Below, in pieces: positions 14,901 through 30,000 of a stretch of DNA of 48,042 bases. Made by a program: the position numbers and the translations under genes. Positions within the stretch are counted from its first letter, which is position 1, and each line of letters opens with the position of its first letter. The notes beneath the pieces were generated by a model that did no database searches, had not been told where the DNA came from, and saw nothing but the letters and a program-made list of their open reading frames with translations. Source of the DNA: a bacterium (GTDB lineage Bacteria > Patescibacteriota > Dojkabacteria > GCA-016699595 > JBAXKR01); NCBI GenBank assembly GCA_037131125.1, contig JBAXRR010000004.1:1-48042 (forward strand), written 5' to 3'.

Positions 14901-17900
14901 CTGTAGTTGTAGAATTAAAAAGAACCGTTCCTGAATTATGGGTAAATGTACCCGAATTGGAATAACTTCCAGTTATAGTTAATGTTGTCGATGGAGCAGT
15001 TACTGTGCCTGCTGTTATTGTAAGGTTATTTGCAACAGTTGCATTATTAGCTCCAAATGTCCAAGCTCCACCAGAGCCATTGAACGTTAGGTTATAGAAA
15101 CTGGATGTTGTTGTCATTGTTCCAGACATAGTATATCCGTTTACCGCTTGATTCCTAGCGACAGATATCTGAGCTTGTGTTAATGCATAGTCATAAACTT
15201 TTGGCTCATCTATAGTTCCATTAAAATATCTTCCTGCATAAGATGGTTCATGACCTACTTCGAAAGCATTATTTGGTGCATATGGCGTTGAGGCTGATGT
15301 TCCTGATGTCTGTGTTCCATTTACGTAAAACTTAGTAATTCCTGCCTCTCTTACCATTGCAACGTAATACCAAGTACTTGAGCTTAATGTATATCCACTA
15401 TCTATCCAAACGATTGCTCCAAGTAATCCAACAAGATTAGAACCTGATCCACCACCACCATTACCAATTCCAAAACCATATCCACCTGAATCGTTACCGT
15501 TATAGATTATCATCGGAGAAGTTTGAGGAAGAGTTGCCGTATATATCCATGCAGACATTGAATAGTTATTTGTAAGTGAATTTGCCTTATTTGTTGCATA
15601 TACCCTAGATGATGATCCATTAAAACTTAATGCTGTGTCATATTTACCTGCTACCCATGATGTATTTGCTGCAGTTCCATTTTGTCCCCCCACTACTTTT
15701 GTGTTAATTGCAGTACCTGTATTTTCATCAAAGTTCCAGTAAAGACTTGGATTTGTTATACCAACTCCATTCATATTTACTGTTCCAGAATTATGTGTAA
15801 AAGTTCCTGCGTTTGAATAATTTCCTGCAACTGAAAGTGTTGTTGATGGTGCTGTAAGTGTACCTGCAGTTATTGTGAGATTTCCTGCAACATCTGCCGA
15901 GTTTGCAGCAAATGACCAGGCTCCACCAGAGCCATTGAATGTAAGATCATAGAAAGCTGATGTTGTTGTCATTGTTCCTACTAATGTTTTACCTACAGCT
16001 GTTGAATTCATTAAAACTATTCCATAGTTATGTGTGAATGTTCCTGAATTTGAATAACTACCAGTTATAGTCAGTGTTGTTGAGGGTGCTGTTACTGTAC
16101 CTAAAGTAATGGTGAAATCGTTCGCCACAGTTGCTGGGTTTGCAGCAAATGACCATGCTCCACCTGAGCCATTGAATGTTAGGTTATAGAAAGAGCTGGT
16201 TGTTGTCATAGTCCCAGCTAAGGTATTACCTGCATCAGTTGCACTCATTGTTACAGTTCCAGAATTATGTGTAAAAGTTCCTGAATTAGAATAGTTATTT
16301 CCTATTGTTAAGGTAGTGGATGGTGCAGTTACTGTACCATTCGTGATTGTAAAATCGTTACTTACAGTTGCTGCATTTGCACCAAAAGTCCATGCTCCAC
16401 CAACGCCATTAAATGTTAGATTATAGAATGCAGATGTTGTGGTCAAAGTAGGACCTAATGTTCCACCACCACTAGTCCTGGTCATATTAACCGTGGATGT
16501 TCCCGCAGTAAATGTACCCGCATTCCCCCATGAACCTGCAACATTAATAGTATTCGCACCAGCAGATATAGTCCCGTTGTTTGCCATATGAAAAGTATTT
16601 ACAGTCCCACCAGGTGTATATGTATTTGAAGGATATATATATAGTTTTTCTTGAGTAGAAAATCCGGTATTATCGACCGTTAATGTTGTACCTGAATTAT
16701 CAAAAAATACATCTGCACTTCCCGACACACTATTATCATAAGTCCCGATATCTGTATTGGAAAGATTTGCATTATCCGTATTTCCTAACATCAGATGCTC
16801 TTTATCTAGTTCAATATTTGTAATATCTCCAGTACCATCGTACTTTGTCACCGCCGCAGCTTTATCCGCGTTAGCTGCTCCCTCAATGTATACAGTTACC
16901 ACAGCATTCGTTGCAGGTTTTGTAATTTCTCCAACTGTCCAAGTACCTGCAACTGTTGGTTGTATCTGTGGTTGTAAAACGCTTCCCACTGCAACTCTAA
17001 TAGTTCCAGTATCTCCACATGCAGTAGATTCATCAAATGCTTTACAAGTACCACTTACATTTATTGTAATAGGAGAATACTCAACAAGTAACCACATAGA
17101 AGTTACCCTAATATTGTTTGCAGTATCTACAGTTTCCCTTGCACCAACTTGCGCTCCATCAAGTGCCGATGATGTCCAGGCAGTTTCCTGTTCTGGTCTT
17201 GTGTATGATGTTAGTTGGTAATTTCTTGGAGCAGCAGAATTATTCGTAAACCATGTAGTGTTTGGAGTCATAACGTTTCCACTTTCTGAAAATGGTCCCC
17301 CTGTACCATCCTTAATTCTTAGAGCAAAAGCCATAGTTGAATTTACGTCTACAGTAGCTCTAACTCCTGCAGAAACTAAATTAATTGTTTGAGTTGCATC
17401 AATTGTATATGTACTTGAATCTTGGACGTTAGCTTCAAATACTGCATTAAGAGTTGAAGTAGTAACATAATCTGTTATATCGTTAGGAGGAACTTCATCA
17501 ACATTTGTATACGTATTTGTCCATCCAGAAGTGTCTCCAGCACCATTTGGAAGAAGGTGAACTATTTTACCTGGTCCTGGATATCCGTTTTGAGTTGTAC
17601 CAACATTTTGATTAATGGCAACATCATCATATATCCAGTCTCCTGTTGTTTGAGCTTCTGAATTCAAGTTTCCACCAAGTCCCAATTGATATACACCAGA
17701 AGATAAAGTTCTTGAAGAACTTGTTGCAAATACATTACCATCCACTTTTCCCTCTACAACCTGAGATCCTCCTGCAAGTGATGCATCCGCTTTTATTTCG
17801 ATTCTGTACCAAGTGGTTAAAGAAAGAGCAGTTGAAGCTGAGCCTATTACTCCAACGTTATCATAAAGTTTTAGAGCTCTTGTATTATCTACAGTAATAT

Positions 17901-20496
17901 ATGCAATAGCTGTACCTGAGGAATTTCTTACATCTATGATCCTATTTTCTGCACTCGGAGCAGTGTTAATATATATGTATGCTCGGAAATAGTATGGACC
18001 ATTGCTATTTGCACTAGCAAATTGATAATTAACTGCTTTTCTTGTTGTACTTGCAAGTGTGTTTATCTGAAGAGCTGCTGCTCCAGATCTTTTTGTTGCA
18101 GTAGTTATAGCTGGAGTACTATTAATTGTTGTCCATTCCATATCTGCAGTCACACTTTGAAGTTCAAAACCTGAAGAAAATACTCTTCCTCCTTCTGCTG
18201 GAACATACTCAACAGTTACCCAAACAGTACTAATACTAAATACTGGAGAACAGTCTACTGCATTTAATCTTACAGTCATTCCGTCTACTATAGATGGTGT
18301 AAGAGTTCCATAATTTGCTGCCCCAGGATCATCATATGAGAATATTGGAGGATTTTCAGGATAGGTATCATCGTTTGTGTAGTAAGTTGTGGTTACTGCC
18401 ATAGCTACTGTTGCTGAAGTATCTATTCCTCCTCCTGCATTTAAAAGAGAAATAGAATAGGAGTTACCTAGATTAGACGCAGCACCTCCTACTCTTACAT
18501 TCCCAGCAGCTAGCTTTATTATATCGTTTGCACCAATTCCAGGAGTACTGGTATTCTGCAATGTATAGTCCTCAAGTTGACCATTAGCACTACAAGTGAT
18601 AACAGTGCCAGCATCATCTGGAGTAACTTCTTTTACGTTATTAAAATCATTAGTCCATGCTGTATTTGTACCATTTCCATCTGGATGAAGATTTACAACT
18701 TTTCCACTACCTGGCCAGTTGAATTGACTTGCATATGAATCTTGGTTAATTGCAAGATCATCCCAAAAGAAGTTAGCTGTTCCGGATTGTAAAATACCAA
18801 GATCCAAAAATGTAATACCGTTAACAAGATTTTGTGTTGTAGATCTCGCGAAACTTACTCCATCAATTCTTGCTGACATTATTGTGTTTCCCGTTCCATT
18901 AGTTCCAAAATCAAATTCCATCTCCAGCCTATACCATGTATTTGTGGAAAGAGCAGAAGAATTAGATCCAACTTGAGCATTGTCTTCTTCATTATATAAC
19001 TGAAGAATTCCTCCTGTTGTCATACGAAGACACTCCTTGTATGTACCTGCATTATCCCTAAAACACATAACTTGAATGGTTCCATTTGGAAGTGTAGATA
19101 TTCTAATATATGCTCTAGCATATGTAGCAGTTGCAGTATCAGCAGCACTCGTAAATTCATACCTAATTCCACTCGTTGCAGCGCCTCCTAAAGTAGTGTT
19201 AAGTGAATACGTTCCTGATCTTACAGTACCTGAAGATATTGTTGGAGTTGTTCCAATATTTGCAGTGTATTCCATATCTGCCGTAGTACTATTGAGTTCA
19301 AACCCTGAAGTCCAAAGTCTAGTAGGATACGTATATCCAACACTATCCACTGCTATTTGCCACATTCTTTTTTCTACATACAAATCTGATGTTCCATCTG
19401 AAATAGTAATCTTCCCTAAGTTGTAAAACTCAGGACTTATTTCAGGTGCTTTATATGTATATCCAAGAGTAACTTCTTCTCCTGCTTTCATATCTACTTT
19501 GTATGAAATCTTTTGAGAAGTTTCACCTCCAGCTACTTCCGATTTATCTTGTCCATCCATTCCCTCAATATTTTTTATATTAAAAGAACTTGGAACTTGC
19601 TCAACAATAGTACCTATGAAATCATTTTTAGATTTGACTTTGATAGTTACTGGATATTCTAAAACAGGATATATTCTAGTTGCAGTTATTCTTGTAATTT
19701 GAAAGTCTAAACTATCCTTTACACTAACTACAGAATCCATACTTCGCTCGCCATTAGGAGTTATTGCTTTTAGTTGAAAAGTATAATCTCCGACTTCATC
19801 AAATTTATAACTAGCCTTGTAGTCTGGGACTAGGGTAAATTCTTTTTTATTACAATAATCTGTTACTGCAATTGTTTTATCTTTTGTAGATAAAGTCGTA
19901 ACAACTTTAGATGGAGAAGTAATTTGTAATGTCATTTGAGCTTTACAGACCATCTCACCTTTATCGTCAAGAACAGACATTTGAATATCACCAGTTTCTC
20001 CAACTAGGTAACTATCTTTGTTTGTATTTAACGCAAGAACTCCCCATTCAAAATTATTTGTATACACAACTTCGGTTCCATCTGTAATTTCAATTGTGTT
20101 AACACCTGGAGTCATCTCACTAGGAGGATTAATTAACAAAAGACCATTTGCATCTACTTTATATTTTAATTGTTTTCTATCTCCTTTGGCATTCTTGGAA
20201 TAAACAAAAAGTTTGTCTGGAACATATCTACCTAACTCAACTTTTAGCTCATCAGTCGCAGCATAATTTGTTTTTTGAAGATGGATGTCAGATTTAGTAA
20301 GGCTTCTTTGAATTTTCCCTATATTTTCACCCGGATTAGATACGACAGTATCAATAAACTGGCTCTTTAGAAGAATTGAAGTGACTATTTGAAAGATAAG
20401 AAACAAACCTAAGACTAACAGTGTGGATCTTAAAGTAAATTTAATGATTGTTTTTTTATTGAAAATCTTCCCCAATTTCTTATGAAATGGATACAA
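5986..20496 (-). CDS. Giant surface adhesin-like protein (4836 aa): N-terminal TM, duplicated lectin-like modules, ~21 79-aa repeats, 5 LamG-like domains, 2 DUF2341-like domains, FN3-like domains, WxL-like C-terminus
   Basis: Uninterrupted 14.5 kb ORF from TTG. LamG motifs (YWNFDE...FNGTIDEPKVYDYAL; HWRLDE...GKVDEVRVYDRVL); DUF2341 motifs (DLRF.. SDG..QL.YWVE...VWVKVP...IYVYYGN); FN3-like YHWQARTKD and YFFNVRATDNA; ends SGQYVTSIVYTVIPQY. Confidence 0.9.
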   Translation of the reverse strand: MYPFHKKLGKIFNKKTIIKFTLRSTLLVLGLFLIFQIVTSILLKSQFIDTVVSNPGENIGKIQRSLTKSDIHLQKTNYAATDELKVELGRYVPDKLFVYSKNAKGDRKQLKYKVDANGLLLINPPSEMTPGVNTIEITDGTEVVYTNNFEWGVLALNTNKDSYLVGETGDIQMSVLDDKGEMVCKAQMTLQITSPSKVVTTLSTKDKTIAVTDYCNKKEFTLVPDYKASYKFDEVGDYTFQLKAITPNGERSMDSVVSVKDSLDFQITRITATRIYPVLEYPVTIKVKSKNDFIGTIVEQVPSSFNIKNIEGMDGQDKSEVAGGETSQKISYKVDMKAGEEVTLGYTYKAPEISPEFYNLGKITISDGTSDLYVEKRMWQIAVDSVGYTYPTRLWTSGFELNSTTADMEYTANIGTTPTISSGTVRSGTYSLNTTLGGAATSGIRYEFTSAADTATATYARAYIRISTLPNGTIQVMCFRDNAGTYKECLRMTTGGILQLYNEEDNAQVGSNSSALSTNTWYRLEMEFDFGTNGTGNTIMSARIDGVSFARSTTQNLVNGITFLDLGILQSGTANFFWDDLAINQDSYASQFNWPGSGKVVNLHPDGNGTNTAWTNDFNNVKEVTPDDAGTVITCSANGQLEDYTLQNTSTPGIGANDIIKLAAGNVRVGGAASNLGNSYSISLLNAGGGIDTSATVAMAVTTTYYTNDDTYPENPPIFSYDDPGAANYGTLTPSIVDGMTVRLNAVDCSPVFSISTVWVTVEYVPAEGGRVFSSGFELQSVTADMEWTTINSTPAITTATKRSGAAALQINTLASTTRKAVNYQFASANSNGPYYFRAYIYINTAPSAENRIIDVRNSSGTAIAYITVDNTRALKLYDNVGVIGSASTALSLTTWYRIEIKADASLAGGSQVVEGKVDGNVFATSSSRTLSSGVYQLGLGGNLNSEAQTTGDWIYDDVAINQNVGTTQNGYPGPGKIVHLLPNGAGDTSGWTNTYTNVDEVPPNDITDYVTTSTLNAVFEANVQDSSTYTIDATQTINLVSAGVRATVDVNSTMAFALRIKDGTGGPFSESGNVMTPNTTWFTNNSAAPRNYQLTSYTRPEQETAWTSSALDGAQVGARETVDTANNIRVTSMWLLVEYSPITINVSGTCKAFDESTACGDTGTIRVAVGSVLQPQIQPTVAGTWTVGEITKPATNAVVTVYIEGAANADKAAAVTKYDGTGDITNIELDKEHLMLGNTDNANLSNTDIGTYDNSVSGSADVFFDNSGTTLTVDNTGFSTQEKLYIYPSNTYTPGGTVNTFHMANNGTISAGANTINVAGSWGNAGTFTAGTSTVNMTRTSGGGTLGPTLTTTSAFYNLTFNGVGGAWTFGANAATVSNDFTITNGTVTAPSTTLTIGNNYSNSGTFTHNSGTVTMSATDAGNTLAGTMTTTSSFYNLTFNGSGGAWSFAANPATVANDFTITLGTVTAPSTTLTITGSYSNSGTFTHNYGIVLMNSTAVGKTLVGTMTTTSAFYDLTFNGSGGAWSFAANSADVAGNLTITAGTLTAPSTTLSVAGNYSNAGTFTHNSGTVNMNGVGITNPSLYWNFDENTGTAINTKVVGGQNGTAANTSWVAGKYDTALSFNGSSSRVYATNKANSLTNNYSMSAWIYTATLPQTSPMIIYNGNDSGGYGFGIGNGGGGSGSNLVGLLGAIVWIDSGYTLSSSTWYYVAMVREAGITKFYVNGTQTSGTSASTPYAPNNAFEVGHEPSYAGRYFNGTIDEPKVYDYALTQAQISVARNQAVNGYTMSGTMTTTSSFYNLTFNGSGGAWTFGANNATVANNLTITAGTVTAPSTTLTITGSYSNSGTFTHNSGTVLFNSTTTAKTLAGVMTTTSSFYNLTFNGSGGAWSFGANSATVANDFTITLGTLTAPSTTLTITGNYSNSATFTHNSGTVTFNSTTTGKTLVGTMTTTSSFYNLTFNGSGGAWSFAANSATVANNLTITAGTVTAPSTTLTITGSYSNSGTFTHNSGTVLFNATTTGKTLSGTMTTTSSFYNLTFNGSGGAWSFGANSATVANDFTITLGTLTAPSTTLTITGNYSNSATFTHNSGTVTFNSTTTGKTLVGTMTTTSSFYNLTFNGSGGAWSFGANNVLVVYNFTITNGTVTAPSTTLTIGNNYSNSGTFTHNSGTVIFNAPNPGKTLSGTMTTTSSFYNLTFNGVGGAWSFGGNAATVVNDLVITNGTITFPSTTLTIGGNFSNAATFISNSGTVLMNATITGKTLSGLMSGGITNNFANLTFNGVGGAWSFGSNGVTVWNNFTITNGTVTAPSSLVTLFLGGSYSNSGTFVHNSGTVYMSSGNIGNTLSGTMTGSSSFYNLTIDGLDGGEFSFGAYPATVINNFTITASTATVTAPSTTLTITGNYSNGGTFIPNSGLVLFNATTTGKTITNGNFYNIQFNGSGGGWTFSSNPTSVTHNFTITNGTVVAPFDNMYIGGSYSNSGTFTNNSGGIIFNSTTTGNTLSGTMTGSSSFYDLFFDGVGGAWSFGSNSATVTDVFDIFNGSVTAPSSTLTLGTSYYNGASFIHNNGTVLMNATSGGRTLSGTMTGSSAFYNLTFNGVGGAWTFGSTNADINNNFTITNGTVTASSGTLSIGGNYTNSATFINNSGTVLMSSTTTGHTLSGTMTSPSQFCNLTFNGLGGTWSFSSANVTLDCNFTIIKGTVTAPSGTLSIAGNYTNQEDTASYRKSMTIDNTANSNTLTNPQIVLDEGEVAHWRLDETSGTNVADSSGNNLSGTSVGAAVTTGHYNNARTFGYDNYVDVTYPNLKFGNRNSFTISAWAYKTSYDVGRNQTVFVQQTTQYNGFNFGITTDGSDNICAATGNAYVMGYYACSPISLNTWTFVTMTYNNGAIILYVDGSQTATATYTGGDVESPDWVATIGNDYYSTTSRYWDGKVDEVRVYDRVLSPTEVAFLHTNNLSPLLGSIYTHTQEGGQDLRFVNSDGTSQLSYWVEKYTASGENARVRVLIPSISANSTKDIYINYGDPTATSNSSVIPFQDTSTNSDANLMGLWRMDEATGTTLIDSSTHGNTGTFIGTTGGQWQGGKIGPGLQFDGGSNSVSVNNSSSVQVGNNVTMSMWIRKTMETNYGMYMTKNFSPSGGDSTGWYQLMNYGTSGRLSFRATNDGDDLISNASIPIDTWTHIAVTYDGSTATIYINGAYDNSISKTVTPVQTTDPLIIGARSDGMQNGVILDAVRLYNRALNSTEILALLPPNRPFVSGLGSEVAGVFSNSGIFTHNNGTVLMNSTSTGKTLVGNMTTPSAFYNLTFNGSGGAWTFAAYPASAENNFTITTGTVTAPSTTLSVGGNYSNSGVYTHNSGTFIANPASGSKTLSGTMTGSSSFYNFTSNGANAFANIDFGANSATVVNDFSHQGGSLTFPSTTLTVGGNFSLASPISNNGGTIIMNATTTGKTITGIGTYGWINVRPLYNLIFNGVGGGWTLGPGSSNSSGAAIQNDFTITNGTVIAPTTNLQIGGNYSNSGTFTNSSGTVTMIATSGGKTLSGSMIGSSSFYNLIFDGSGGAWSFATNPATVANDLTVTTGNVTAPSTTLSIGGNYSNSDTFTHNSGTVLMNSTATGKTLSGTMTSSSSFYNLVFNGTGGAWSFGSNAATTINDFSIIAGNVTAPSSTLTVGGNYSNSELSPNSGKYRKAITVDNSSNSNALSNYQVKVDEGEIGRWKMDENTGTSVANSANTTNSTNVSLNNATWTSSGQYSNAVVLNGSSAYGTVSNLPDMNSITLSVWVKRSGNGSNGYPRIVSWTNYGLEIADYNNTGVLGINTPAIGWINTGQSFGAGWNNIALTVSGTTTKLYFNGSYINTYTGGLSASGTMYIGKAYTLSEYFNGQIDETRIYDHALSSTDISSLYTNNRSPMLDTVYSNTQESGADLRFTDSDGTTQLNYWVERYTASGQNAKVWVKVPSIGASTTKTIYVYYGNPTASSNSSVSNTFVREVSNLNRSYSMDEASWTANCSSNTVFDSSGNGYHLKACNAGATVTAGKFGNGGSFSSAYLSGTYAYIQYQTFLTWAKPTGAGSIITSMPSSNSMVAEFDGSGNLTCSVVPAAHFAWHSCASSGVNMLSAWHYVGCSFDSSGNINVFVDGAVNNSCSTGHTTGLYNYGDTIFQIGKSYSGAYYPGQLDQYQVFSSALTTPEVTDLYNNYGYSTLNYTGKVLVRKYSSPEPGVSAVGAETANSSALGTFTHNSGTVIMNSTSTGKTLSGTMTTSSAFNNLWFDGVGGAWSFDVSPATVLNDFLINNGAVTAPSTTLLISEHFTNLSGTFTHNSGTVTFNDNTKISQIEYKSDTTFYNFSSVTGGKQIFLENVNQTNVTGTLTINGQACGSFIKLYSDASGNQAKLNATGTVSITYAEIKDSNAIVALTATNSKRISNDTNWTITGGVCNGVPNSPSSLAQKFTSNVVINTGDWINQNSINFTANISDPNNPDTIYLCVELVPIATTFSNYETLCSTGYSYTGSPVAATVSMTSITDQTEYHWQARTKDIFGEYSAWVSYGANLESVRDVGLDLTVPTGGTVYDGTSIGSDISFNNGSLSSISANWSGFDSTISGLNHYDYSIGTTQGGTDVVGWTANSTSTSVTVSSLTLISSKMYFFNVRATDNATNISSVVSSNGQVVAPSLSFSLDTNTINFGNLNGNNSYETTKTNVLTTSTNAYNGYLIKAYETDLLRSVANGSLTIPNFSLGSYATPSGWTGSNYGFGYSSSDTSIQGSGKFPASGSCLGTGTAPCYAPFATSGPGDIVADHTATVSGTPITNETFTITYKVKTQSTQTSGQYVTSIVYTVIPQY
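7560..16450 (-). repeat. Intragenic tandem repeat, 237-bp (79-aa) unit, about 21 copies, interrupted three times by inserted domains
   Basis: Unit GTMTTTSSFYNLTFNGSGGAWSFGANSATVANDFTITLGTLTAPSTTLTITGNYSNSATFTHNSGTVTFNSTTTGKTLV. Met codons fall at 14167, 14404, 14641 and 14878 (237-bp spacing). Boundaries are approximate. Confidence 0.9.
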
Positions 20497-20593: not shown

Positions 20594-21265
20594 TTATATT
20601 TCTGATTTTCTTGTCTTTATTTTTATCGCTCTTACTCCAAAAAATACTAAAGTAAATCCTAGAAGTATTTCCGAAATAATTGCTAGCCTATTATCACTAA
20701 ATATGGCAGTTGATGGGAGATCCTTAGAGGTATAAGCAGGATCAGCCGAATATGTAAAAGATGTTCCAAGTGTTGCTGGTGTTAACTGATTAGTCAAACT
20801 CACATCCGTTCCTAATGTAACTATTGATTTTGAATCTATCTTTAATACTGTATCTTGGGCTGATACTCCAGAAAGTGTTTTCACCTTTAATACTGCTAAT
20901 AACCCACTTCCTGTATAGGAAGAATATGTTCCGTTTTGAATCCTCATTAGACCTGTTGAAAAGTCTGCTCCATTATATAGTCCACTAGTATTAAATTCTG
21001 AAATCGTACCTTTTGATGCTGTTACACTTAATACCGCTGGATCATATGATATATAAACATCTGCTACTGATATCGCTGTCCCTGCTGTATTTATATTTAC
21101 ATTTATCGTCTGCTCTGTTAACCCTATCGTTCCATTCTCTGGTGATAAGGTTAAAGTTACACTCCCTGCTGCATTTACAGAAGTTGGAAAGAATCCAATA
21201 GAAATAAATAGAGCAATTACAACAACACTAAAAACATTTATAATTTTTGACATTTTCAATTTCAT
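20594..21265 (-). CDS. Cohesin-domain protein with C-terminal LPSTA sorting-like motif, TM and basic tail
   Basis: 223 aa. Signal peptide ending VNA; LTLSPENGTI...INVNINTAGTAISVADVYISYDPAVLSV...YTGSGLLAVLKVK is cohesin-like; then DLPSTA, hydrophobic segment, KIKTRK. Confidence 0.75.
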   Translation of the reverse strand: MKLKMSKIINVFSVVVIALFISIGFFPTSVNAAGSVTLTLSPENGTIGLTEQTINVNINTAGTAISVADVYISYDPAVLSVTASKGTISEFNTSGLYNGADFSTGLMRIQNGTYSSYTGSGLLAVLKVKTLSGVSAQDTVLKIDSKSIVTLGTDVSLTNQLTPATLGTSFTYSADPAYTSKDLPSTAIFSDNRLAIISEILLGFTLVFFGVRAIKIKTRKSEI

Positions 21266-21310
21266 TTAAGTAGATTCAAATTTTATTCTACTTTGTATTA
21301 TTATTTATAT

Positions 21311-21886
21311 TTATTCCAATGTAAAATTATAATTAACCAATGTGTTTGAAAGTTCATTTAAAGACATATCTACTCCTGCATTAGCAAATGAAGTGGATTC
21401 TAATGATAACGTTGGGGATGCCCTATTACTTGTATCTGCTAAAGATAGAGTTGCTAAAACTCCACTTCCAGTAAATCCAGTTAGATTTCCTGCTTGAACA
21501 GTTAGTTCTCCATTTTCAGTTTTGCCTAAGAATAAATCATTTAAATTTGTAATAACACCTTTATTGGCAATAACAATAGACGATCCATCTGAAATAGCAA
21601 ATCTCAAATCTAATGCTGTAACCTTAGTTCCATTAGTATTTAGGTTTAAATTATATTTATTTGTTCCAACTTTATCTATAGAAACAACAACATTTCCAGT
21701 TGGTGTAGGAACTTTGTAGCTTGAGTTAGTACTTGAAGAGACATTCGATACAACACCTGAATTAGAGTTCGCAACTTTTACATTTTGCCCTCTTACGTAT
21801 AGTAAAACACCGAAAATTAGTAACGAGGAAATCATTATTATTGCGACAACAACAATTAATGATTTTGTATTTTTTGTATTTTCCAT
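21311..21886 (-). CDS. N-terminally membrane-anchored cohesin-like protein
   Basis: 191 aa. N-terminal TM, Ser/Asn linker; LNLNTNGTKVTALDLRF...FTGSGVLATLSL resembles the neighbouring cohesins. Confidence 0.6.
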   Translation of the reverse strand: MENTKNTKSLIVVVAIIMISSLLIFGVLLYVRGQNVKVANSNSGVVSNVSSSTNSSYKVPTPTGNVVVSIDKVGTNKYNLNLNTNGTKVTALDLRFAISDGSSIVIANKGVITNLNDLFLGKTENGELTVQAGNLTGFTGSGVLATLSLADTSNRASPTLSLESTSFANAGVDMSLNELSNTLVNYNFTLE

Positions 21887-21911
21887 TTGGCAGTGTTAAT
21901 AATTAATAAAT

Positions 21912-24503
21912 TTATCTTACGCAAGCCTTATTTGTTGTAGTTCTGTAATTTGTTAGAGCTACTACGAAGCTAGCGAAATCCATAATATCCACAACATTAT
22001 TTTTAATAATATCGGCAAATCCACAATTACTTGATGCAATTTGAGCATCTTTTTTCTGATAGCAAGCTCTCCATTTTGCAAAATCCATAATATCTATCCT
22101 TCCATCATTATTAAAATCATATGCAACACAAGAAGCATGAATATTTGATGACGTAGTAGATCCTGAGCTACTTGTTGTTACAACATCATTTGATGTGTTA
22201 TTACTACTATTTGTAGATGCTGAAGAAGAAGTAGATGCAGTTGAAGAGGCTGTTGAGCCACCACCAGTTGCCGTAACTGTTACAGTTGCTGTATTTGTCT
22301 TACATGTTGTCCCTATTACTCCAGTGAAAACATATGCTCCAGGTATAGTGTAGGATGCATTCTCAAATGCTCCTGCAGAGCCAACTGATTCCAAACTACC
22401 ATCAGGTTTTTGAACTTGAATGGCAACAGTTGTATCAGTATTTCCACCACTTACTGCTACAACCTTAAATGATTGTGCAGGATTAACTGTCAATGTTTGT
22501 GAAAGAGGTGTTGTTGAATTTGGTTGAACTCTAAGAATTGCAGTTGGACAATTTGCAGTTGGAAGTCCTGGAGCACCAGTTGTTAATCCTATGGAAAGAT
22601 GAGGTAATTTAGGATAATTAGCTGCTGTCGCTGTCGCACTAATTGAAAATATAGCTTTAAAGGATATTTTCTTTGAGGCAGTTGGAAATGCTTGCATAAA
22701 AGTTTGATTTGACAATTCTGCTGATGTATTTGAATTCATATTACTTGTTGCATTAACCCATGCAGAACCATTCCAGTATTTCCAAGTTGATCCTGTTTCA
22801 CAGACAGACCCATCATTATCACAAAGTTGATAAGTAATTTTACCTTTTGTTGAATCTCTAGTGTCGAAGCCAGGGTTTGTTGTACATGCAGAACTGCCTG
22901 ATGTTGATACACCTAAAGTACCTTCACAAAAGCTATTCCATTTATTCAAATTTGTAAATGAATACGATCCCGCTAGAAATATAGTCGGCTCTTTTATAAT
23001 ACTAAATTTTGCAAATTTAATTGTTTTTCCAGCTTTCAAAACAAATCCAAATCCTCTTACCCCAACTCCACCCTTAATTGAAGCAGATAACCTTTTCCAC
23101 CCTGCTGCTTTTGTTGCACTAATGTCTGTATATTTTGTAGGGATTGTTTGACCAAAGTAAAATAGCTTAACATCACTTTCAGGGCCAGGATTATACACAT
23201 CTAAATTCATTTCGTACATTGAAGTATCTGCTAAGTCAAGTTTGTTTATAAATTTCACATCAAGTAATGGAGGTGCTGCAACCTCATTGTCAGCTGTTGC
23301 ACTATATGTTGCAGGTTTAGTAATTGTAAATGGTTCACTTGCACATCTAAAACCAATAAATTCCTTTTGATCACTTGGAAGATAGTTTAAATTCATTGCA
23401 AATGCACCAGATATTGAATTATCTCTAAATGAACCTCCACGTAAATATCCATAATTTGTAGAGTCTGTTGAACTTATTTTTCCAGAATATATTTGTCCAA
23501 CTCCTTTTGTTGAATTATATGTGGCTACAGAAGGTTTAATTTGATCAGCAGTTAAGCCTGTACCATATGTTGTTAAAGCTGTAAACTCTCTACTCTTAAA
23601 TCCCGTATCAGTACCTGTACCAACAGGCTGATTTATTCCAGTTATTGTATTATCAGTCCACTCCCAAAGATTACCAGCAAAGTCCCAAATAGGTTGTCCA
23701 TTTGCAAGAGCCAATGTTCGAACTTGTTCATTAGGTCCAGTATTTATTTTACTTTGTAAATCGTCAGGAGAAGCAACTAACACCTTTGATGGAGTATCGT
23801 CATTATGTCCTGAAAACATCGAACCTGTTCCAACTGTTCCACTTGACCAGTTAGCTTGAACTTTTTCAACATTTCTAGCTATTGTCATCCATTCATCATT
23901 TGTAATTAAATGTAATGGCTTTCCATTTATACTTACACTACTACATCTGAGTTTTGCTTCTGTCTGAGATATATGCGCAATTGGATACCCTCCAGGAAGA
24001 GACACAACACTTCTACCATTTGCGGTTGTACACTGATTAGAGGTATCTGCCGCTTTATAGTCAGAATATGTTTCGTAAGAAGTATCTGCTGGAGATGTTA
24101 ACCCAACAGTAGGTGTTGCAGTATTTGCACATTTTGCCTCATACTTCATAACTAAAAAGTCAGTTGCAGAATATGTAGCTTGTGTCCCAGCTAGTATATA
24201 ACCTGATGGAGTAATAGGAACAGCACTCCAATCTGTATTTGCCTTATTAACTAAAGCTTGAGGATAGGCACCAGTACTATCAATTGTAAGTGCAGTTGTA
24301 TCATATGTATACATTGCCGATGTTGAAGAATTTGAAGAAGTCATAGCCCAAGTTTTATACTCGTTATTTGGAGTGTCATTATTAATGACACTAGCTTTTG
24401 TTCTATTATCCAAATCAGTTTTGTAATAAAGTGCAAAACCAACTATTAGTACAACTAGAAACAAAGCAATTATTCCAATGATGACTAGATATTTTTTCTT
24501 CAT
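21912..24503 (-). CDS. Dockerin-bearing surface protein with FGE-sulfatase/C-type-lectin-fold domain
   Basis: 863 aa. N-terminal TM plus DNRTKAS; FLVMKYEAK...HLITNDEW...IWDFAGNLWEW...LRGGSF...IGFRC; Ig-like module; Ser/Thr linker; twin Ca-binding loops DFNNDGRIDIMD and DIIKNNVVDIMD. Confidence 0.8.
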   Translation of the reverse strand: MKKKYLVIIGIIALFLVVLIVGFALYYKTDLDNRTKASVINNDTPNNEYKTWAMTSSNSSTSAMYTYDTTALTIDSTGAYPQALVNKANTDWSAVPITPSGYILAGTQATYSATDFLVMKYEAKCANTATPTVGLTSPADTSYETYSDYKAADTSNQCTTANGRSVVSLPGGYPIAHISQTEAKLRCSSVSINGKPLHLITNDEWMTIARNVEKVQANWSSGTVGTGSMFSGHNDDTPSKVLVASPDDLQSKINTGPNEQVRTLALANGQPIWDFAGNLWEWTDNTITGINQPVGTGTDTGFKSREFTALTTYGTGLTADQIKPSVATYNSTKGVGQIYSGKISSTDSTNYGYLRGGSFRDNSISGAFAMNLNYLPSDQKEFIGFRCASEPFTITKPATYSATADNEVAAPPLLDVKFINKLDLADTSMYEMNLDVYNPGPESDVKLFYFGQTIPTKYTDISATKAAGWKRLSASIKGGVGVRGFGFVLKAGKTIKFAKFSIIKEPTIFLAGSYSFTNLNKWNSFCEGTLGVSTSGSSACTTNPGFDTRDSTKGKITYQLCDNDGSVCETGSTWKYWNGSAWVNATSNMNSNTSAELSNQTFMQAFPTASKKISFKAIFSISATATAANYPKLPHLSIGLTTGAPGLPTANCPTAILRVQPNSTTPLSQTLTVNPAQSFKVVAVSGGNTDTTVAIQVQKPDGSLESVGSAGAFENASYTIPGAYVFTGVIGTTCKTNTATVTVTATGGGSTASSTASTSSSASTNSSNNTSNDVVTTSSSGSTTSSNIHASCVAYDFNNDGRIDIMDFAKWRACYQKKDAQIASSNCGFADIIKNNVVDIMDFASFVVALTNYRTTTNKACVR

Positions 24504-24538
24504 TTAAAATATATTAATTATTTAACTATATAAATATT

Positions 24539-25213
24539 TTAAGATTCTATATCTTTTTTCTTAATATTTGTAACTTTTATGACAAGTGCTACTAGTGAGA
24601 TTCCAATTAACATTTCTGCTAAAAGTGAAGTTAAGTTGTTATCAAAAAGTGCTGTTGAAGGTAAATCTTTTCTTGTATAGGCAGGATCAGCTGAATATGT
24701 AAATGTCGATCCTATTGTTGCTGGTGTTAACTGATTAGTCAAAGTTACATCCGTTGGTAAAGTAGCTGTTGATTTTGAATTTATCGTAAGTGTTGTATCT
24801 TGTGCTGTTGTAACTGCCGAAAGAGTCTTCACCTTTAATACTGCTAATAACCCACTCCCTGTATATGAAGTAAGCATTCCATTTTGAATCCTCATAAGAC
24901 CTGTTGAAAAGTCTCCGGCTGCATACACTCCACTATTATTAAATTCCGCAATTGTACCTTTTGAAGCTGTTACACTTAATACTGCTGGATCATATGATAT
25001 ATAGAGATCTACAACCGCTATTGCTGTTCCTGCTGTATCCAAATTAACATTTATTGTCTGCTCTGATAATCCTATCGTTCCATTCGCTGGTGATAGGGTT
25101 ATTAATACATTCCCAGATGCTCTGACAGGAGATGGAATTACACTCAAAAGTAAAAAGATAAAGATTGATGTAATTGTAAGAATCCTTCCGAACTTAGTTA
25201 TATTTTTCTTCAC
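24539..25213 (-). CDS. Cohesin-domain protein with LPSTA motif, paralog of 20594..21265
   Basis: 224 aa from GTG. The core is highly similar in protein and DNA to 20594..21265; DLPSTA, TM, KKK tail. Confidence 0.75.
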   Translation of the reverse strand: MKKNITKFGRILTITSIFIFLLLSVIPSPVRASGNVLITLSPANGTIGLSEQTINVNLDTAGTAIAVVDLYISYDPAVLSVTASKGTIAEFNNSGVYAAGDFSTGLMRIQNGMLTSYTGSGLLAVLKVKTLSAVTTAQDTTLTINSKSTATLPTDVTLTNQLTPATIGSTFTYSADPAYTRKDLPSTALFDNNLTSLLAEMLIGISLVALVIKVTNIKKKDIES

Positions 25214-25253
25214 TTGGCAGAGTAATTAAAAATAATATATTTTGAAAATCATT

Positions 25254-26813
25254 TTATTTAACACAAGCTTTATTTGTTGTAGTTCTGTAATTTGTTAGAG
25301 CTACAACAAAGCTAGCAAAATCCATAATATCTACAGACTTATCCGAATTAATATCAGCATAACTACAACCACTTGTTGCAATTGCATCTCCTTTCTTTGT
25401 ATAACAAGGTCTCCAAGTTGCAAAATCCATTATATCTATGGCTTTATCCTTGTTGAAGTCGTAGTTTACACAACTTACATCCAATACTCCCCCAATAGTT
25501 GAAGAAGATGTTCCTGAAGTATTAATTAAACTAACTTCTGCTGTTGAATCTTTAATATATTTCGTAGGTAATGTAGTACCATCAAAAATATCATTTGTTG
25601 AAAGTAATTTTGCAGTATTCTTTACTTGGAATGCTGTATATTTTGTATTCTTAAATGTGTTTGTTGTAAATCCTGCAACTGCTGTATTTGCTATTAATAC
25701 CTGTTCTATAGCTGATGTTCCATTATTATCTATTGTATTAGATGTAAATGTAGCTTTTGAACTGTCTTTCAAATCTATTGCTTGTGTTAATTGTCCCGTA
25801 AATGTTGATCCACTTACATTCACCTGAGCACTTCCATGAACACTTACACCAGCAAATGCTGAAGTTGTAAATGTTGAATTAGTAATTTTACCAATTGATG
25901 CACCCTTAAAATATATTCCAGCACCTTTACTTCCAATTACCTTGATATTATCTGCAGTGAAATTAACATCATTTGTTACTGTGTTATTATCCCCACCTAC
26001 TGAAATTCCTGAACATCCACCAGATGACTTTATTGTTAAATTCTTAACAACATAAATACCACCCAATTTACCTAAAGTTAAAGTATTACAAACATTAGCT
26101 GCATTAGATGAGCCATCTATGATTACTCCATCTACACTCTCACCTTCAATGGTCACCTCTTTTGCACCTTGATCAGTGAAGAAGAAGTTAGTTGTATATG
26201 TTCCATTTTTAATATATAGCTTACCCTTTTCAGGAGTTACTTTAACTGCATCTTGAAGTGTTTGATAGTCACAGCCTGATGCACAAACAGTCTTTGTTGC
26301 ACCAGTTGTTGCTGGAAGTGTTGGCACTGTTACGACAGGAGCCACAACTACTGATCCACTAGAAGAAGATCCTGTTCCACTTACTGTTACAGTCGCAGTA
26401 TTTGTTTTACATGTAGTTCCAATTGTTCCTATAAAAATATATGCACCAGGTACTGTGTATGAAGCATCTTCAAATGCACCTGAAGCACCAACTGAAGCTA
26501 CAGTTCCATCTGGTTTTTGAACTTGAATAGATACACTTGTTACTGTTTTACTAGTACCACTATCTGCTGCAACTACTTTGAATGATTGCCCTGGTGTTAC
26601 AGTTAAAGTTTGCGATAATGGTGTTTGTGAATTTGGTTGAACTCTTAAAATGGCAGTTGGACAATTTGCAATTGGTAAGCCTACAAAATTTAAAGCTGTG
26701 GATGCTTTTGTTCGATTATCATAATCTGACTTGTAATAGAGGGCAACACTGAAAAGGAGTGTGGAAACAACAATAATTCCTACAAGAAAGATTCCAAATA
26801 TATTTTTTTTCAT
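25254..26813 (-). CDS. Dockerin-bearing surface protein with right-handed parallel beta-helix (pectin lyase-like) domain
   Basis: 519 aa. TM plus DNRTKAS; Ig-like module; TVCASGCDYQTLQDAV...LYIKNGTY...VTIEGES...VIIDG followed by beta-helix rungs; dockerin loops DFNKDKAIDIMD and DINSDKSVDIMD. Confidence 0.8.
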   Translation of the reverse strand: MKKNIFGIFLVGIIVVSTLLFSVALYYKSDYDNRTKASTALNFVGLPIANCPTAILRVQPNSQTPLSQTLTVTPGQSFKVVAADSGTSKTVTSVSIQVQKPDGTVASVGASGAFEDASYTVPGAYIFIGTIGTTCKTNTATVTVSGTGSSSSGSVVVAPVVTVPTLPATTGATKTVCASGCDYQTLQDAVKVTPEKGKLYIKNGTYTTNFFFTDQGAKEVTIEGESVDGVIIDGSSNAANVCNTLTLGKLGGIYVVKNLTIKSSGGCSGISVGGDNNTVTNDVNFTADNIKVIGSKGAGIYFKGASIGKITNSTFTTSAFAGVSVHGSAQVNVSGSTFTGQLTQAIDLKDSSKATFTSNTIDNNGTSAIEQVLIANTAVAGFTTNTFKNTKYTAFQVKNTAKLLSTNDIFDGTTLPTKYIKDSTAEVSLINTSGTSSSTIGGVLDVSCVNYDFNKDKAIDIMDFATWRPCYTKKGDAIATSGCSYADINSDKSVDIMDFASFVVALTNYRTTTNKACVK

Positions 26814-27002: not shown

Positions 27003-30000
27003 TTGGAAATTAGGCAGGACAAAAAAAAACTTATATATATAGTATTAACGATTCTTCCAATTACCCTATTCTTTCTTTTCATATTTGGATTCTTTTCAAG
27101 CAGTGATGCTAATGCAGTAAGTACGCAAGCACCAGCTGGGGCTGCAAGTTTTGTAAGTGGTGTTACTACTGCAACAGAAGCAGGAACTCCAACTACTACA
27201 TGTAAACTTGGTGCAAATTCTGCTGCAAATATTGGTGACCTCATAAAAGTAGATGCTGGAAATAATACATTTAATAGAGGACTAAACTTTGGATGGGTGC
27301 TTACAGTTTTAAAAGATATTAACGAAATTAACGGATACGAGGGAATTACTAAAATCAAAAAACTTATACAAGATTTTAGAAAATCTGGTACTAGTGTAAT
27401 TATACGTATATGTAATGGAGCTGAATGTAATGGTTTAGGACCACAAGGAGCAAGTGATATCACAATGGCGAATGATGGAAAACAGTTAGGAAAATATCTG
27501 ACTTTGCTTTCCTATGAACTTATGAAAGACGATCAGGGGGGAGGTGCAAAGACATCTCCATTTTGGGTAATTGCAGGACATAATGAACCTAATGCTGCTG
27601 AATGGAGAACTCCATCAGGAGAAACAGCATTCATGAATTCCCTTATTAACGAAGTATCTGATTCATATGAAGTAAATAAAAATTTATTGGAACTCGGAAT
27701 TACAGATCCAGGACTTTCTGCAAGTGGAGCAATGCCTAAAGAAGCATTCTTCTTTGGAATTAGAAGTAGAATAAATCTATTATCTCCTGAAGTACAAAAT
27801 GTTCCAGATGGAGCAGAATCTTCAACAGCTCTTAAGTATTACGACGCACCAAGTAACGCAGGTGGAGGTGGTGGTGCAGGTTGTAATGGAGCAAAGGGAG
27901 GATACTTTTCCAGGATGATCAAGTGTGGAGCTATATTTGGTGAATTAGATGGAATAGCAACTAACCTATATACAGTTGCAGATATTAAACAAGGATTGGA
28001 ATATGCTCAAACTAGACAAAAGAAACTATATGTACTTGAAAGTGGACCTGAAAATGTATTTAGTAAAGGAGGAGATGCAGTAAGAAATTCAAGTAACAGC
28101 TTTGACAGTGTAGTTGCTTATACAGATGCTGAAGCTAAACAATATAGATATACTTTTGTAGATCAATTTATAAACAATCCCCAAATAGGAGCAATACTCC
28201 CCTTCAATTCTCTTCCACTTAGTGATTTAACTGCAATGACAGGAAATCCTGTTGCAGACAGAGACTTCCAACCATATACAAAGAATATGTATGCGAGAAA
28301 AGATGCAAATGATGCTGAAAATTTTACAAAACTTGCAGGGACAGATAATAGGTACAAAACAGTAACTGTTTCTTCAAAGGATGCTAGTGGTAATGTAACT
28401 GAAAAGAAGATTAAAACTGAACCTGTTTCTATGAATCTAGGATGGCCAGTATTCTATGAGGCACAAGTAATAGATATGTTGAATAGCGCAGGCTGCTCAA
28501 ATGTATTTACAAGACAATGTAACTACCAAGCAGATGGGTCAGATAACAATAAAGTGGCAACAGTAAATGCAGATTCATCAGATACAAAAACTGCATACTA
28601 TGACATGGTAGATTCTATAAAGAATACTGATAAGGAGTCTGCTCTTGCATTTAAGCCATGGACTAAAACAGTTTGTATTAAATATACATACAATGGACTT
28701 GGTGTTGTCTGTGATAAGAAAGATATTAGAAACATAACTATTACCAACATGCTTACAGATGCAGTATTCAAATCTGACATGTTAACAACAGTGCAAGTAA
28801 ATATCCCTCTTGCTAATACTCTTTCAAATACAAGCATAAATGGAACAGATGAATTAAACTACACACAGTATGGAGGATCTTTAAAGAGAATGTCATACCA
28901 AGATAATGTAGATTTTTCTAGAAAATCCGATGCAACTCTTCAAATAGATTTACCTGGTAATGGTGGAGCTAAAACTCAAATAGCATTTCCACAACTTGGA
29001 AGCGCAATAGATCTATATAGTAGAGATTTCTTTGACTACTCAACAACAGATCCAGACGTATTAAATCAACCAAAAGACTTTTTAAATGTTACGTATAAAG
29101 TGCCAAATTCAAGTGTTAAAGCTGACATGTCACCTGCAGGAAGAAGACTGGAACTGGAGAATAGTAAGACTTCAATAAAAAGTATAGGCGAACTTGCAAC
29201 ACCATATGCAAATGCTTCCGGCAAAAGTTCATCTGATTCAAAACTCATTAGAGCAAATGGAACTGACGATACTGGCATGACTAAATATACAGTATATTCT
29301 TCAAGTGTTAATGATCAAGTAGGTCAAGGTGGTGCGATACCCGACTATAAGAATTATCAAGCAATAAAGACTGATGCAAAGACAGACAAAGTTCAATTCA
29401 ATGCATCTGAGATATTAAGTGAAGAAGCAGCAGTAAGTAGAGCACAGTTAGAACAAAACTATTTTGTAAGTTGTTCTAATATAACTGAATATGATAAGAA
29501 CTTGATTGGAGCTGGTGGAAAACCAATGACATTTAAGAATAATGAATATCCAATTGCTGTAAATTATGATCAAGACTATTCTCATGGAAGATGTGATGGT
29601 TATCCAGAAGGTGGAGTACCTGGAGTTAATTTCACAGTAACAGATGGAAGTGGTGCAACAGTTACAGATTATTCTGGAATGGATTCTAATCTAATTCCAC
29701 CAGGAAAACCGGGATCAGCATATAAAGATAATCATTTAACAACAGTTTCAAAAGACTGCTATAGAGCTTGGTGTCAATTAGCATCAAATAAAAGAAAGGT
29801 AGATACAGATCCAGAATTTAATGGTGGTGGTGGTACAAACGCTTCAGCATACTCGTCAGGTGGTTCCCAATTTGCATTTGCATACTTTCCTCTTACAAAA
29901 GATTATTCATTCTTAAGTAAAATACAAACAGCTTCTGCAAATGTAGATTCAGGAAGCGGAATGATGAGGATATTAAGAACTGCATGGGAACAAAGTAATA

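Follow-up and report, generated by a model that had tools for sequence, protein, structure and literature searches.

Patescibacteria, a group that also goes by the name Candidate Phyla Radiation (CPR), account for much of the diversity of bacteria and live, for the most part, in attachment to other cells, and to our knowledge the way in which they construct and arm their surface is poorly known. Do some of them mount surface proteins through paired cohesin and dockerin modules? The question is raised by five genes on the minus strand of a 48,042-nt stretch of a Dojkabacteria genome (contig JBAXRR010000004.1; the whole stretch is hereafter called the window). The original prediction, made from the letters of this DNA, described these genes as a self-contained plug-in system in which anchored cohesins display dockerin-tailed, non-cellulolytic cargo on a CPR-like bacterium. 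Our analysis indicates that the cluster probably encodes a non-cellulosomal cohesin–dockerin tethering system of the cell envelope, with two units that arose as a tandem duplication. This reading is carried by the kinds of module present, by the order in which they occur, by the anchor signals and by the conservation of the cassette; the interaction between the two kinds of module is a modelled one.

The cluster (20594–26813) consists of five co-oriented open reading frames (ORFs) with intergenic gaps of 25–45 bp in the ORF list of the window, and these follow the predicted transcription order: a dockerin protein of 519 amino acids (aa), a 224-aa cohesin protein, a second dockerin protein of 863 aa, a divergent 191-aa cohesin protein and a 223-aa cohesin protein (Table 1). 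Each cohesin protein carries a single cohesin domain and an anchor, as had been predicted; two terminate in an LPSTA signal and the 191-aa protein begins with a membrane helix. The 223- and 224-aa cohesins share 63% protein identity, and the two dockerin proteins have in common an N-terminal hydrophobic segment, a 94-residue module and the dockerin itself (BLASTP). At the DNA level, the two units are 75–84% identical over the cohesin, dockerin and 94-residue-module segments, which indicates that the cluster is a tandem duplication. What the original prediction reported as seen in the sequence is thus borne out in full.

Profile searches and structure prediction bore out the cohesin assignment. 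In a six-frame search of the genome, the 223-aa cohesin scored 24.4 bits, above the Pfam cut-off for Cohesin (PF00963, 24.1 bits; that for Dockerin_1, PF00404, is 22.9 bits). Its sequence alone matched no solved structure, and a four-sequence profile reached a best E-value of 0.0033. When 1.84 billion representatives were searched with a profile of the close relatives of the LPSTA cohesins, 155 proteins matched at E ≤ 0.001. The resulting alignment A2, composed of three window proteins and 91 of the 150 listed matches (150–330 aa, leaving out longer multi-domain proteins and the shortest fragments), proved rich in recognized cohesins: 75 of its 94 members match Pfam Cohesin (best E 1.3e-15). 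As a profile it matched 31 solved chains at E ≤ 0.01, of which 30 are named scaffoldin, cohesin or NagJ, the best being the cohesin dyad of A. cellulolyticus (3l8q, 3.3e-13); the 224-aa protein matches the A2 hidden Markov model (HMM) at E 1.5e-42. The AlphaFold2 model of the 223-aa protein (predicted local distance difference test, pLDDT, 89.9; predicted template modelling score 0.72) shows a beta-sandwich between residues 36 and 174, in keeping with the nine-stranded flattened jelly-roll that characterises cohesins, and a helix at the C-terminus. A Foldseek search with this model against the PDB returned 81 matches at E ≤ 0.001 (best 6.6e-7), every listed row being a cohesin, and the top matches had target-normalised TM-scores of 0.72–0.76; the ScaE cohesin 2zf9 was among them.

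The 191-aa protein matched no Pfam family. Its membership in the cohesins is assigned through two sequence comparisons only, namely its similarity to the 223-aa protein across the cohesin region (BLASTP E 1e-10, 32% over 117 aa) and its match at E 7.5e-9 to profile A1, which was built without it. The LPSTA cohesins have few close relatives (4 clusters among 942 candidates), and a search of genome contigs with profile A1 found no relative.

For the dockerins, the predicted identity held on loop patterns and profiles, although the fold search alone did not reach significance. The two EF-hand-like loops of the 519-aa protein, DFNKDKAIDIMD and DINSDKSVDIMD, are 12 residues long each and carry D/N (acidic or amide) residues at positions 1, 3, 5, 9 and 12. 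In the six-frame search, PF00404 scored 25.3 bits on the 519-aa and 23.6 bits on the 863-aa protein, both above the cut-off. Profile A4, built from 13 dockerin tails of the class, matched solved structures with a best dockerin E-value of 4e-8, and its first 22 rows were all dockerin-bearing chains. An AlphaFold2 model of the last 85 residues of the 519-aa protein (pLDDT 82.2) placed helices at residues 27–36 and 62–77, directly after the loops, and the top six Foldseek matches of this model were dockerins (best probability 0.99, TMt 0.65, root-mean-square deviation 2.2 Å, 2y3n_B). A pattern search over the ORFs of the genome found paired intact loops in the 519-aa protein and in a protein on contig C8, described below, and in no other. 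The motif D[IVL]MDF occurs twice in each of the two window dockerins and in no other of the genome's 2006 ORFs, so the further dockerins carrying this motif that might have been expected elsewhere in the genome were not found. The window dockerins also belong to a variant even scarcer than the LPSTA cohesins: a search for cysteine-type dockerins gave 2 matches among 37 candidates, including the protein of the window itself, and all three known members keep the same four cysteines. Two of these cysteines, the first and the last, are present in a relative from another class genome (G003) too, which suggests that they may form a disulfide clasp.

The strongest argument for a coupling of cohesins with dockerins is synteny. 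A dockerin HMM matched 3 of the 2006 ORFs of the genome; all three directly precede a cohesin gene, and the arrangement is therefore beyond chance. The third pair lies at C8:1–3672 (L035), where an 841-aa S8 subtilase (Peptidase_S8, E 1.2e-51) carries a canonical dockerin (28.4 bits) and the cohesin-bearing ORF behind it is truncated by the end of the contig. The genome further encodes an orphan cohesin of 270 aa with an LPGTA signal (C2:46635–47447, minus strand, L036; A2 HMM E 9e-17), which has no Pfam match and no dockerin gene beside it. With this third pair and the orphan, the window cluster is not the self-contained system that had been envisaged.

The same order recurs in related genomes. 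In a class sample of 41 genomes, the present one included (match threshold E ≤ 0.01), Dockerin_1 was detected in 30 (18 over the cut-off), Cohesin likewise in 30 (21 over the cut-off) and both in 25. In 11 of the 41, a dockerin match is followed by a cohesin match on the same strand within 1.2 kb, and the cohesin is downstream of the dockerin in 16 of 16 pairs. Three kinds of pair can be distinguished. The first, found in G003 in the same order as in the present genome, places a beta-helix–dockerin gene before that of a two-cohesin LPSTG protein. The second, resembling the C8 pair, joins an S8 protease–dockerin with a cohesin protein (G002, G006); the two genes of G002 are separated by a type IV pilin-like gene (N_methyl, 25.3 bits). 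The third occurs in seven genomes (loci L027–L031, L033 and L034, from G004, G019, G031, G036, G013, G021 and G035) and consists of a small N-anchored dockerin protein of 194–339 aa followed by a secreted protein of 540–790 aa with an N-terminal cohesin; in these pairs the anchor would seem to be the dockerin protein, and the cargo the cohesin protein; the one large cohesin protein of this kind that was scanned contains CarboxypepD_reg domains.

Across the phylum, the cohesin profile matched 82 of 200 further, evenly sampled Patescibacteria genomes at E ≤ 1e-5 (83 of 201 with the present genome). Among the 29 best cohesin loci from other genomes, taken with 1.5-kb flanks, a dockerin ORF lies upstream on the same strand in 20 and downstream in none; of 10 upstream ORFs put to Pfam, 8 were confirmed as Dockerin_1, and 4 of these exceeded the cut-off. 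Seven of the 29 loci show the order dockerin, cohesin, cohesin. Three of these triads were read closely. In two (L037, L058), the middle cohesin starts with a membrane helix and is without a C-terminal anchor, and the final cohesin combines a signal peptide with an LPDAG or LPQTG motif, which is the architecture of the 863-, 191- and 223-aa genes of the window; in L038, the middle cohesin is of the same build, and no LPXTG-type motif was seen in the last. Pfam matched 0 of 3 such middle cohesins. At a further locus (L041, G163:C5), one ORF with two cohesins and a C-terminal dockerin precedes another cohesin gene and resembles an adaptor scaffoldin. The synteny survey that had been suggested across CPR genomes thus returned a conserved order, and judged from sequence the cassette is present across the phylum rather than restricted to the present genome.

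Modelling of one cohesin–dockerin pair was consistent with direct binding. We modelled cohesin residues 33–180 of the 223-aa protein with dockerin residues 440–519 of the 519-aa protein and two calcium ions, in three runs and with three controls. The median ipSAE was 0.62 (runs 0.62, 0.75 and 0.55), compared with 0.04 for the best control; the runs agreed in at least 95% of contacts, and the pLDDT of each partner was at least 78. In calibration, 58 of 80 solved complexes attained this mark, as did 2 of 110 mismatched pairs. On the dockerin side, the predicted interface comprises both helices (residues 460–471 and 496–510); on the cohesin side, it comprises residues 66–69, 94–98, 110–114 and 148–157, which we take to match the sheet face on which dockerins usually bind. 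Conservation among three sequences is higher at the predicted dockerin contacts (13 of 16 invariant) than elsewhere in the module (27 of 58). The pairing envisaged in the original prediction thus passed its controls in the one combination modelled, although as a predicted and not an observed interaction.

Several observations weigh against a tethering system of this kind. In the protein-level scan, the window cohesins (23.0 bits for the 223-aa and 21.4 bits for the 224-aa protein) and dockerins each score slightly under the Pfam cut-offs. The Foldseek search with the dockerin model gave a best E-value of 0.11, with 0 of 56 matches at E ≤ 0.001; non-significant values are the norm for a domain of this size. 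In the 863-aa dockerin, the second calcium loop (DIIKNNVVDIMD) lacks the ligand at position 3, and that of its only orthologue, P0006, is likewise hydrophobic there. No upstream dockerin accompanies 9 of the 29 best phylum loci, one of these nine lying at a contig start. The predicted cohesin contacts are less conserved than their surroundings (4 of 18 invariant vs 54 of 123 elsewhere, four sequences). Since many cohesin–dockerin complexes have been solved, a passing model indicates likeness to them and is no proof of binding; the result may reflect resemblance to the textbook pair rather than binding by the present copy. Finally, both dockerin proteins may never be released from the membrane, as suggested by an uncharged N-terminal segment of 23 residues compared with 16 in the LPSTA cohesins, which fits poorly with a simple plug-in.

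Some of these points could be taken to mean that the modules do not bind one another at all, the cohesin-like domains being stalk or adhesin domains of the wall and the dockerin-like tails calcium-stabilised EF-hand ends directed at another target, such as a host surface or glycan. The evidence for binding is entirely in silico, the predicted cohesin contacts are poorly conserved, one dockerin has a degenerate calcium loop, and the C2 cohesin stands without a dockerin neighbour. Against this, the strict order of dockerin then cohesin, never reversed in the phylum loci and invariant in the class pairs, would be difficult to account for if the two were not directly linked in function, and the complex model exceeded its controls by a margin of 0.58. 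We therefore regard independent, non-binding modules as quite improbable.

In the tethering system that we favour, each unit would export one protein composed of a working domain and a C-terminal calcium-loop dockerin. The working domains would be a beta-helix of the pectinesterase/pectate-lyase type in one unit and an FGE-sulfatase-like lectin-type fold in the other, and the sockets would come from the adjoining genes. Two of them, the 224- and 223-aa cohesins, are predicted to be secreted with cleavage of their signal peptides, cut at LPSTA by one of three sortases and linked to the wall, and the 191-aa cohesin to be kept in the membrane by its N-terminal helix. Docking of the two dockerin helices onto the sheet face of a cohesin would then hold the working domain at the cell surface, where the probable targets of the cargo are glycans or proteins, belonging either to a host or to the environment. 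Processing by sortase, dependence on calcium and these targets are inferences. Of the plug-in display originally proposed, conserved gene adjacency and a complex model that passed its controls speak in favour, but binding is modelled and the N-terminal segment of the cargo is anchor-like.

The anchor signals of the two LPSTA cohesins can be read from their sequences. Each has a signal peptide with a P-x-x-V-x-A type cleavage context after the 16-residue stretch and, at the other end, LPSTA followed by about 25 hydrophobic residues and a K/R-rich terminus, in agreement with the predicted sortase-type signal. Pfam Gram_pos_anchor matched none of the window proteins. The genome encodes three sortases (PF04203; 94.5, 92.1 and 74.4 bits on contigs C11, C2 and C16, respectively), none of which adjoins the cluster, and an LPXTG-like signal was present in 34 of the 152 remote cohesin relatives examined.

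The N-termini of the other proteins raise a different possibility. The uncharged stretch, whose length is a crude measure for telling an anchor from a cleaved signal peptide, is 23 residues long in both dockerin proteins and in the 191-aa cohesin. With such an anchor-like segment, the cargo may be held at both ends instead of being simply plugged in: the dockerin proteins would stay rooted in the membrane and have their C-terminal dockerin caught by a cohesin, first by the 191-aa protein and then, or alternatively, by an LPSTA cohesin, so that the cargo forms a strut from membrane to wall or is handed outward. The triads of L037 and L058, with an N-anchored dockerin protein, an N-anchored cohesin and an LPXTG cohesin, would suit such a two-point tether or relay (the last cohesin of L038 lacking the motif), as would the seven class genomes in which a small N-anchored dockerin protein goes together with a large secreted cohesin protein. 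Yet the stretch varies from 11 to 23 residues in the dockerin proteins of other genomes, a conserved K-x-D-x-D-N-R-T-K-A-S sequence after the hydrophobic segment could hold a signal-peptidase site (A-S), and the single pair modelled contained the 223-aa and not the 191-aa cohesin. We judge a two-point arrangement rather unlikely compared with the tethering system described above, in which the N-terminal segment of the cargo may or may not be cleaved.

The cargo bears on what the tethering system is for. Among the genome's three dockerin proteins, Pfam identified the families Beta_helix, FGE-sulfatase and Peptidase_S8, and it detected no glycoside hydrolase, carbohydrate esterase or carbohydrate-binding module (CBM) in any of them, in line with the non-cellulolytic cargo of the original prediction. 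A profile search of the 863-aa protein against solved structures gave nothing useful, and the N-terminal cap region of the 519-aa protein matched a pectinesterase (1xg2_A, E 5e-4). This match, together with the Beta_helix and NosD domains of the 519-aa protein and the recurrence in G003 of a beta-helix–dockerin gene followed by a cohesin–LPSTG gene, invites comparison with a miniature cellulosome-like complex, in which the beta-helix protein would be a cell-held enzyme acting on pectin or other polysaccharides for feeding; passages of a study of biogas metagenome-assembled genomes (MAGs) link some CPR members, Candidatus Dojkabacteria for instance, by prediction to carbohydrate degradation (PMC7038595). 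The enzyme and binding families named above are missing from the dockerin proteins, however, and the genome encodes no multi-cohesin scaffoldin, all five of its cohesin proteins having one cohesin each. The cluster is not a cellulosome, lacking a multi-cohesin scaffoldin, glycoside hydrolases and CBMs, and a feeding complex on that plan appears very improbable. A weak double cohesin match on C16 was discarded, the protein being DUF11/DUF7507. That protein (C16:12755–15879), an 817-aa repeat protein with LPRTD and a hydrophobic tail directly before a sortase gene, represents a separate sortase–substrate pair.

Table 1. Features of the cohesin–dockerin cluster within the 48,042-nt window (res, residues of the encoded protein; order is that of transcription)
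Feature	Coordinates	Strand	Description and evidence
Dockerin protein 1, 519 aa, first	25254–26813	-	Beta_helix E 7.8e-13, NosD E 2.8e-8, Dockerin_1 21.7 bits (Pfam)
Layout of dockerin protein 1			Hydrophobic segment res 5–27; two-Cys module res 45–138; right-handed beta-helix about res 224–425; C-terminal dockerin
Two-Cys 94-residue module, copy 1 (519-aa protein)	26400–26681	-	BLASTP 71/94 identities (76%) to copy 2; DNA repeats D3, D5
Dockerin module of 519-aa protein, res 446–519	25257–25478	-	Two EF-hand-like loops, DFNKDKAIDIMD and DINSDKSVDIMD, helix after each
Cohesin protein, 224 aa, second	24539–25213	-	Cleavable-type signal peptide, one cohesin, LPSTA signal, hydrophobic stretch, basic tail
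Dockerin protein 2, 863 aa, third	21912–24503	-	FGE-sulfatase E 5.7e-10, Dockerin_1 19.7 bits (Pfam)
Layout of dockerin protein 2			23-residue hydrophobic segment; FGE-sulfatase-like (C-type-lectin-like) domain res 146–388; middle region; two-Cys module res 646–737; Ser/Thr-rich linker; dockerin
Two-Cys 94-residue module, copy 2 (863-aa protein)	22293–22568	-	BLASTP and DNA repeats
Dockerin module of 863-aa protein, res 790–863	21915–22136	-	Loop 1 DFNNDGRIDIMD intact; loop 2 DIIKNNVVDIMD with Ile at ligand position 3
Divergent cohesin, 191 aa, fourth	21311–21886	-	N-terminal 23-residue membrane-anchor-like helix; ends right after the cohesin, without a C-terminal anchor
Cohesin protein, 223 aa, fifth	20594–21265	-	Signal peptide, one cohesin (beta-sandwich res 36–174), LPSTA sorting signal
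Sorting signal of 223-aa cohesin	20597–20719	-	LPSTA, hydrophobic helix, KIKTRKSEI tail; sequence and AlphaFold2 helix 193–222

The 94-residue module is placed differently in the two dockerin proteins, near the N-terminus in the 519-aa protein and just before the linker and dockerin in the 863-aa protein, and is absent from P0006, the 804-aa orthologue of the latter encoded on a 20-kb metagenome contig. The module's sole database matches, to Peptidase_C30 below threshold (19.7 bits, cut-off 25) and to 3C-like proteases at E ≥ 0.087, are probably due to chance. An NCBIfam scan of the five proteins added nothing of weight. A scan for promoters and terminators gave 41 promoter-like sites, with 37.4 expected, and no minus-strand terminator-like site in the gaps of the five-gene cluster.

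Two large ORFs flank the cluster. Directly downstream and co-oriented, a 4836-aa ORF (5986–20496, minus strand) has a hydrophobic segment at its N-terminus and contains five stretches matching Laminin_G_3 (E 5.8e-94), two matching DUF2341 and a large number of almost identical repeats, each about 70 residues long. An 11-of-12 promoter-like site (20539–20511) is located in the 97-bp gap that separates this ORF from the cluster. HMM and loop-pattern searches detected no dockerin in this ORF, and no such giant follows the G003 cassette. On the other side, a divergently transcribed 1450-aa ORF (27003–31355, plus strand) likewise has a hydrophobic N-terminal segment; it matched no Pfam family at E ≤ 0.001 and probably encodes another surface protein.

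The host genome fits the predicted CPR-like bacterium. It comprises 1.15 Mb on 64 contigs, is 95% complete and has a G+C content of about 33%. All nine SecF relatives found are MAG records; seven are titled to lineages of the Patescibacteria group (Saccharibacteria, Nomurabacteria, Paceibacterota, Parcubacteria or Patescibacteria group), and two, from contigs of one isolate, are titled 'bacterium'. The stretch was also recovered from the environment: six lake-water metagenome runs contain at least half of its length, and contigs from four of these are identical to it, breaking at the duplicated segments so that no single contig spans the cluster. In those four runs, no structural variant was seen except one low-depth joint in one run. 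No RNA dataset is listed as containing the stretch.

Among described systems, the closest by analogy appears to be ScaE of Ruminococcus flavefaciens, a single-cohesin protein linked covalently to the envelope through LPXTG and sortase that, in passages of PMC5301203, holds the non-enzymatic adhesin CttA, ScaB and a peptidase-dockerin. Both share a single cohesin with an LPXTG/sortase-type anchor, dockerin-tailed proteins and clustered genes (PMC5301203). As presented in that source, though, ScaE is what a large cellulosome is built upon, one that has multi-cohesin scaffoldins and numerous glycoside hydrolases, whereas the present genome has neither a scaffoldin nor a dockerin-bearing glycoside hydrolase; ScaE partners also use an X-module–dockerin dyad, none of which was detected in the present proteins (PMC5301203). 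Unlike ScaE, the present cassette adds a second, membrane-anchored cohesin, and its dockerin proteins carry an N-terminal anchor-like segment of their own and dockerins with four conserved cysteines.

The cassette is also comparable to SdbA, OlpA and OlpC of C. (Acetivibrio) thermocellum, single-cohesin surface proteins that tether a dockerin partner, whose entries (2b59, 3ul4, 4dh2) were among the profile and Foldseek matches. Those three are anchored non-covalently by S-layer homology repeats, are not known to use a sortase signal or a membrane helix, and serve cellulosome attachment. Cohesins and dockerins that join extracellular proteins outside cellulose degradation are exemplified by NagJ–NagH of Clostridium perfringens (2ozn, 2jh2, 2o4e) and a cohesin of Archaeoglobus fulgidus (2xdh), all of which appeared among the structural or profile matches. 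These cases join enzymes to one another or have no known function, and unlike the present genes they are not conserved adjacent-gene cassettes with wall and membrane anchors. Non-cellulosomal cohesins and dockerins have reportedly been surveyed by Peer et al. in 2009.

Within Patescibacteria, the nearest likeness is SEML1_0315 of the Saccharibacterium Southlakia epibionticum, a dockerin-bearing envelope protein that is described in part of PMC10633639 as essential and possibly targeting host glycans; in the main text of that paper, there is no mention of a cohesin partner or of a sortase. A search of full-text literature found no description of a cohesin–dockerin cassette in CPR bacteria, agreeing with the claim that no characterised equivalent was known. 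The papers that join cohesin, dockerin and CPR names concern giant proteins of Omnitrophota (in passages of PMC10066038) and statistics on biogas MAGs (likewise in PMC7038595). The parts belong to known families, and for the conserved, enzyme-poor cassette with two kinds of anchored cohesin we found no description in the searchable literature.

A broader interpretation can be offered tentatively, with low confidence. A three-gene cassette present throughout the phylum, consisting of a membrane-anchored X-dockerin protein, a membrane cohesin and a sortase-linked cohesin, might serve to mount envelope proteins, with the dockerin protein rooted in the membrane and its tail passed on by the membrane cohesin to the wall cohesin. 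At the same low confidence, the product might be an envelope-spanning strut or a surface organ handed outward, with the cysteine clasp locking the dockerin in the present lineage. If this were true, cohesin–dockerin pairing would be used for envelope architecture rather than enzyme assembly, and it could explain why a cultivated Saccharibacterium depends on an essential dockerin protein.

For the tethering system itself, the consequences concern both the phylum and the modules. The cohesin–dockerin field gains very small enzyme-free pairs, a cysteine-bearing dockerin variant and a divergent cohesin subfamily missed by Pfam. For Patescibacteria, the cassette, with its dockerin-first order at 20 of the 29 strongest cohesin loci of a 200-genome sample, provides a testable assembly rule for surface proteins, under which the displayed proteins would become predictable as whatever bears a matching dockerin. 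Genetic tools exist for Saccharibacteria, in which one dockerin protein is reported as essential in part of PMC10633639, and the idea is thus directly testable.

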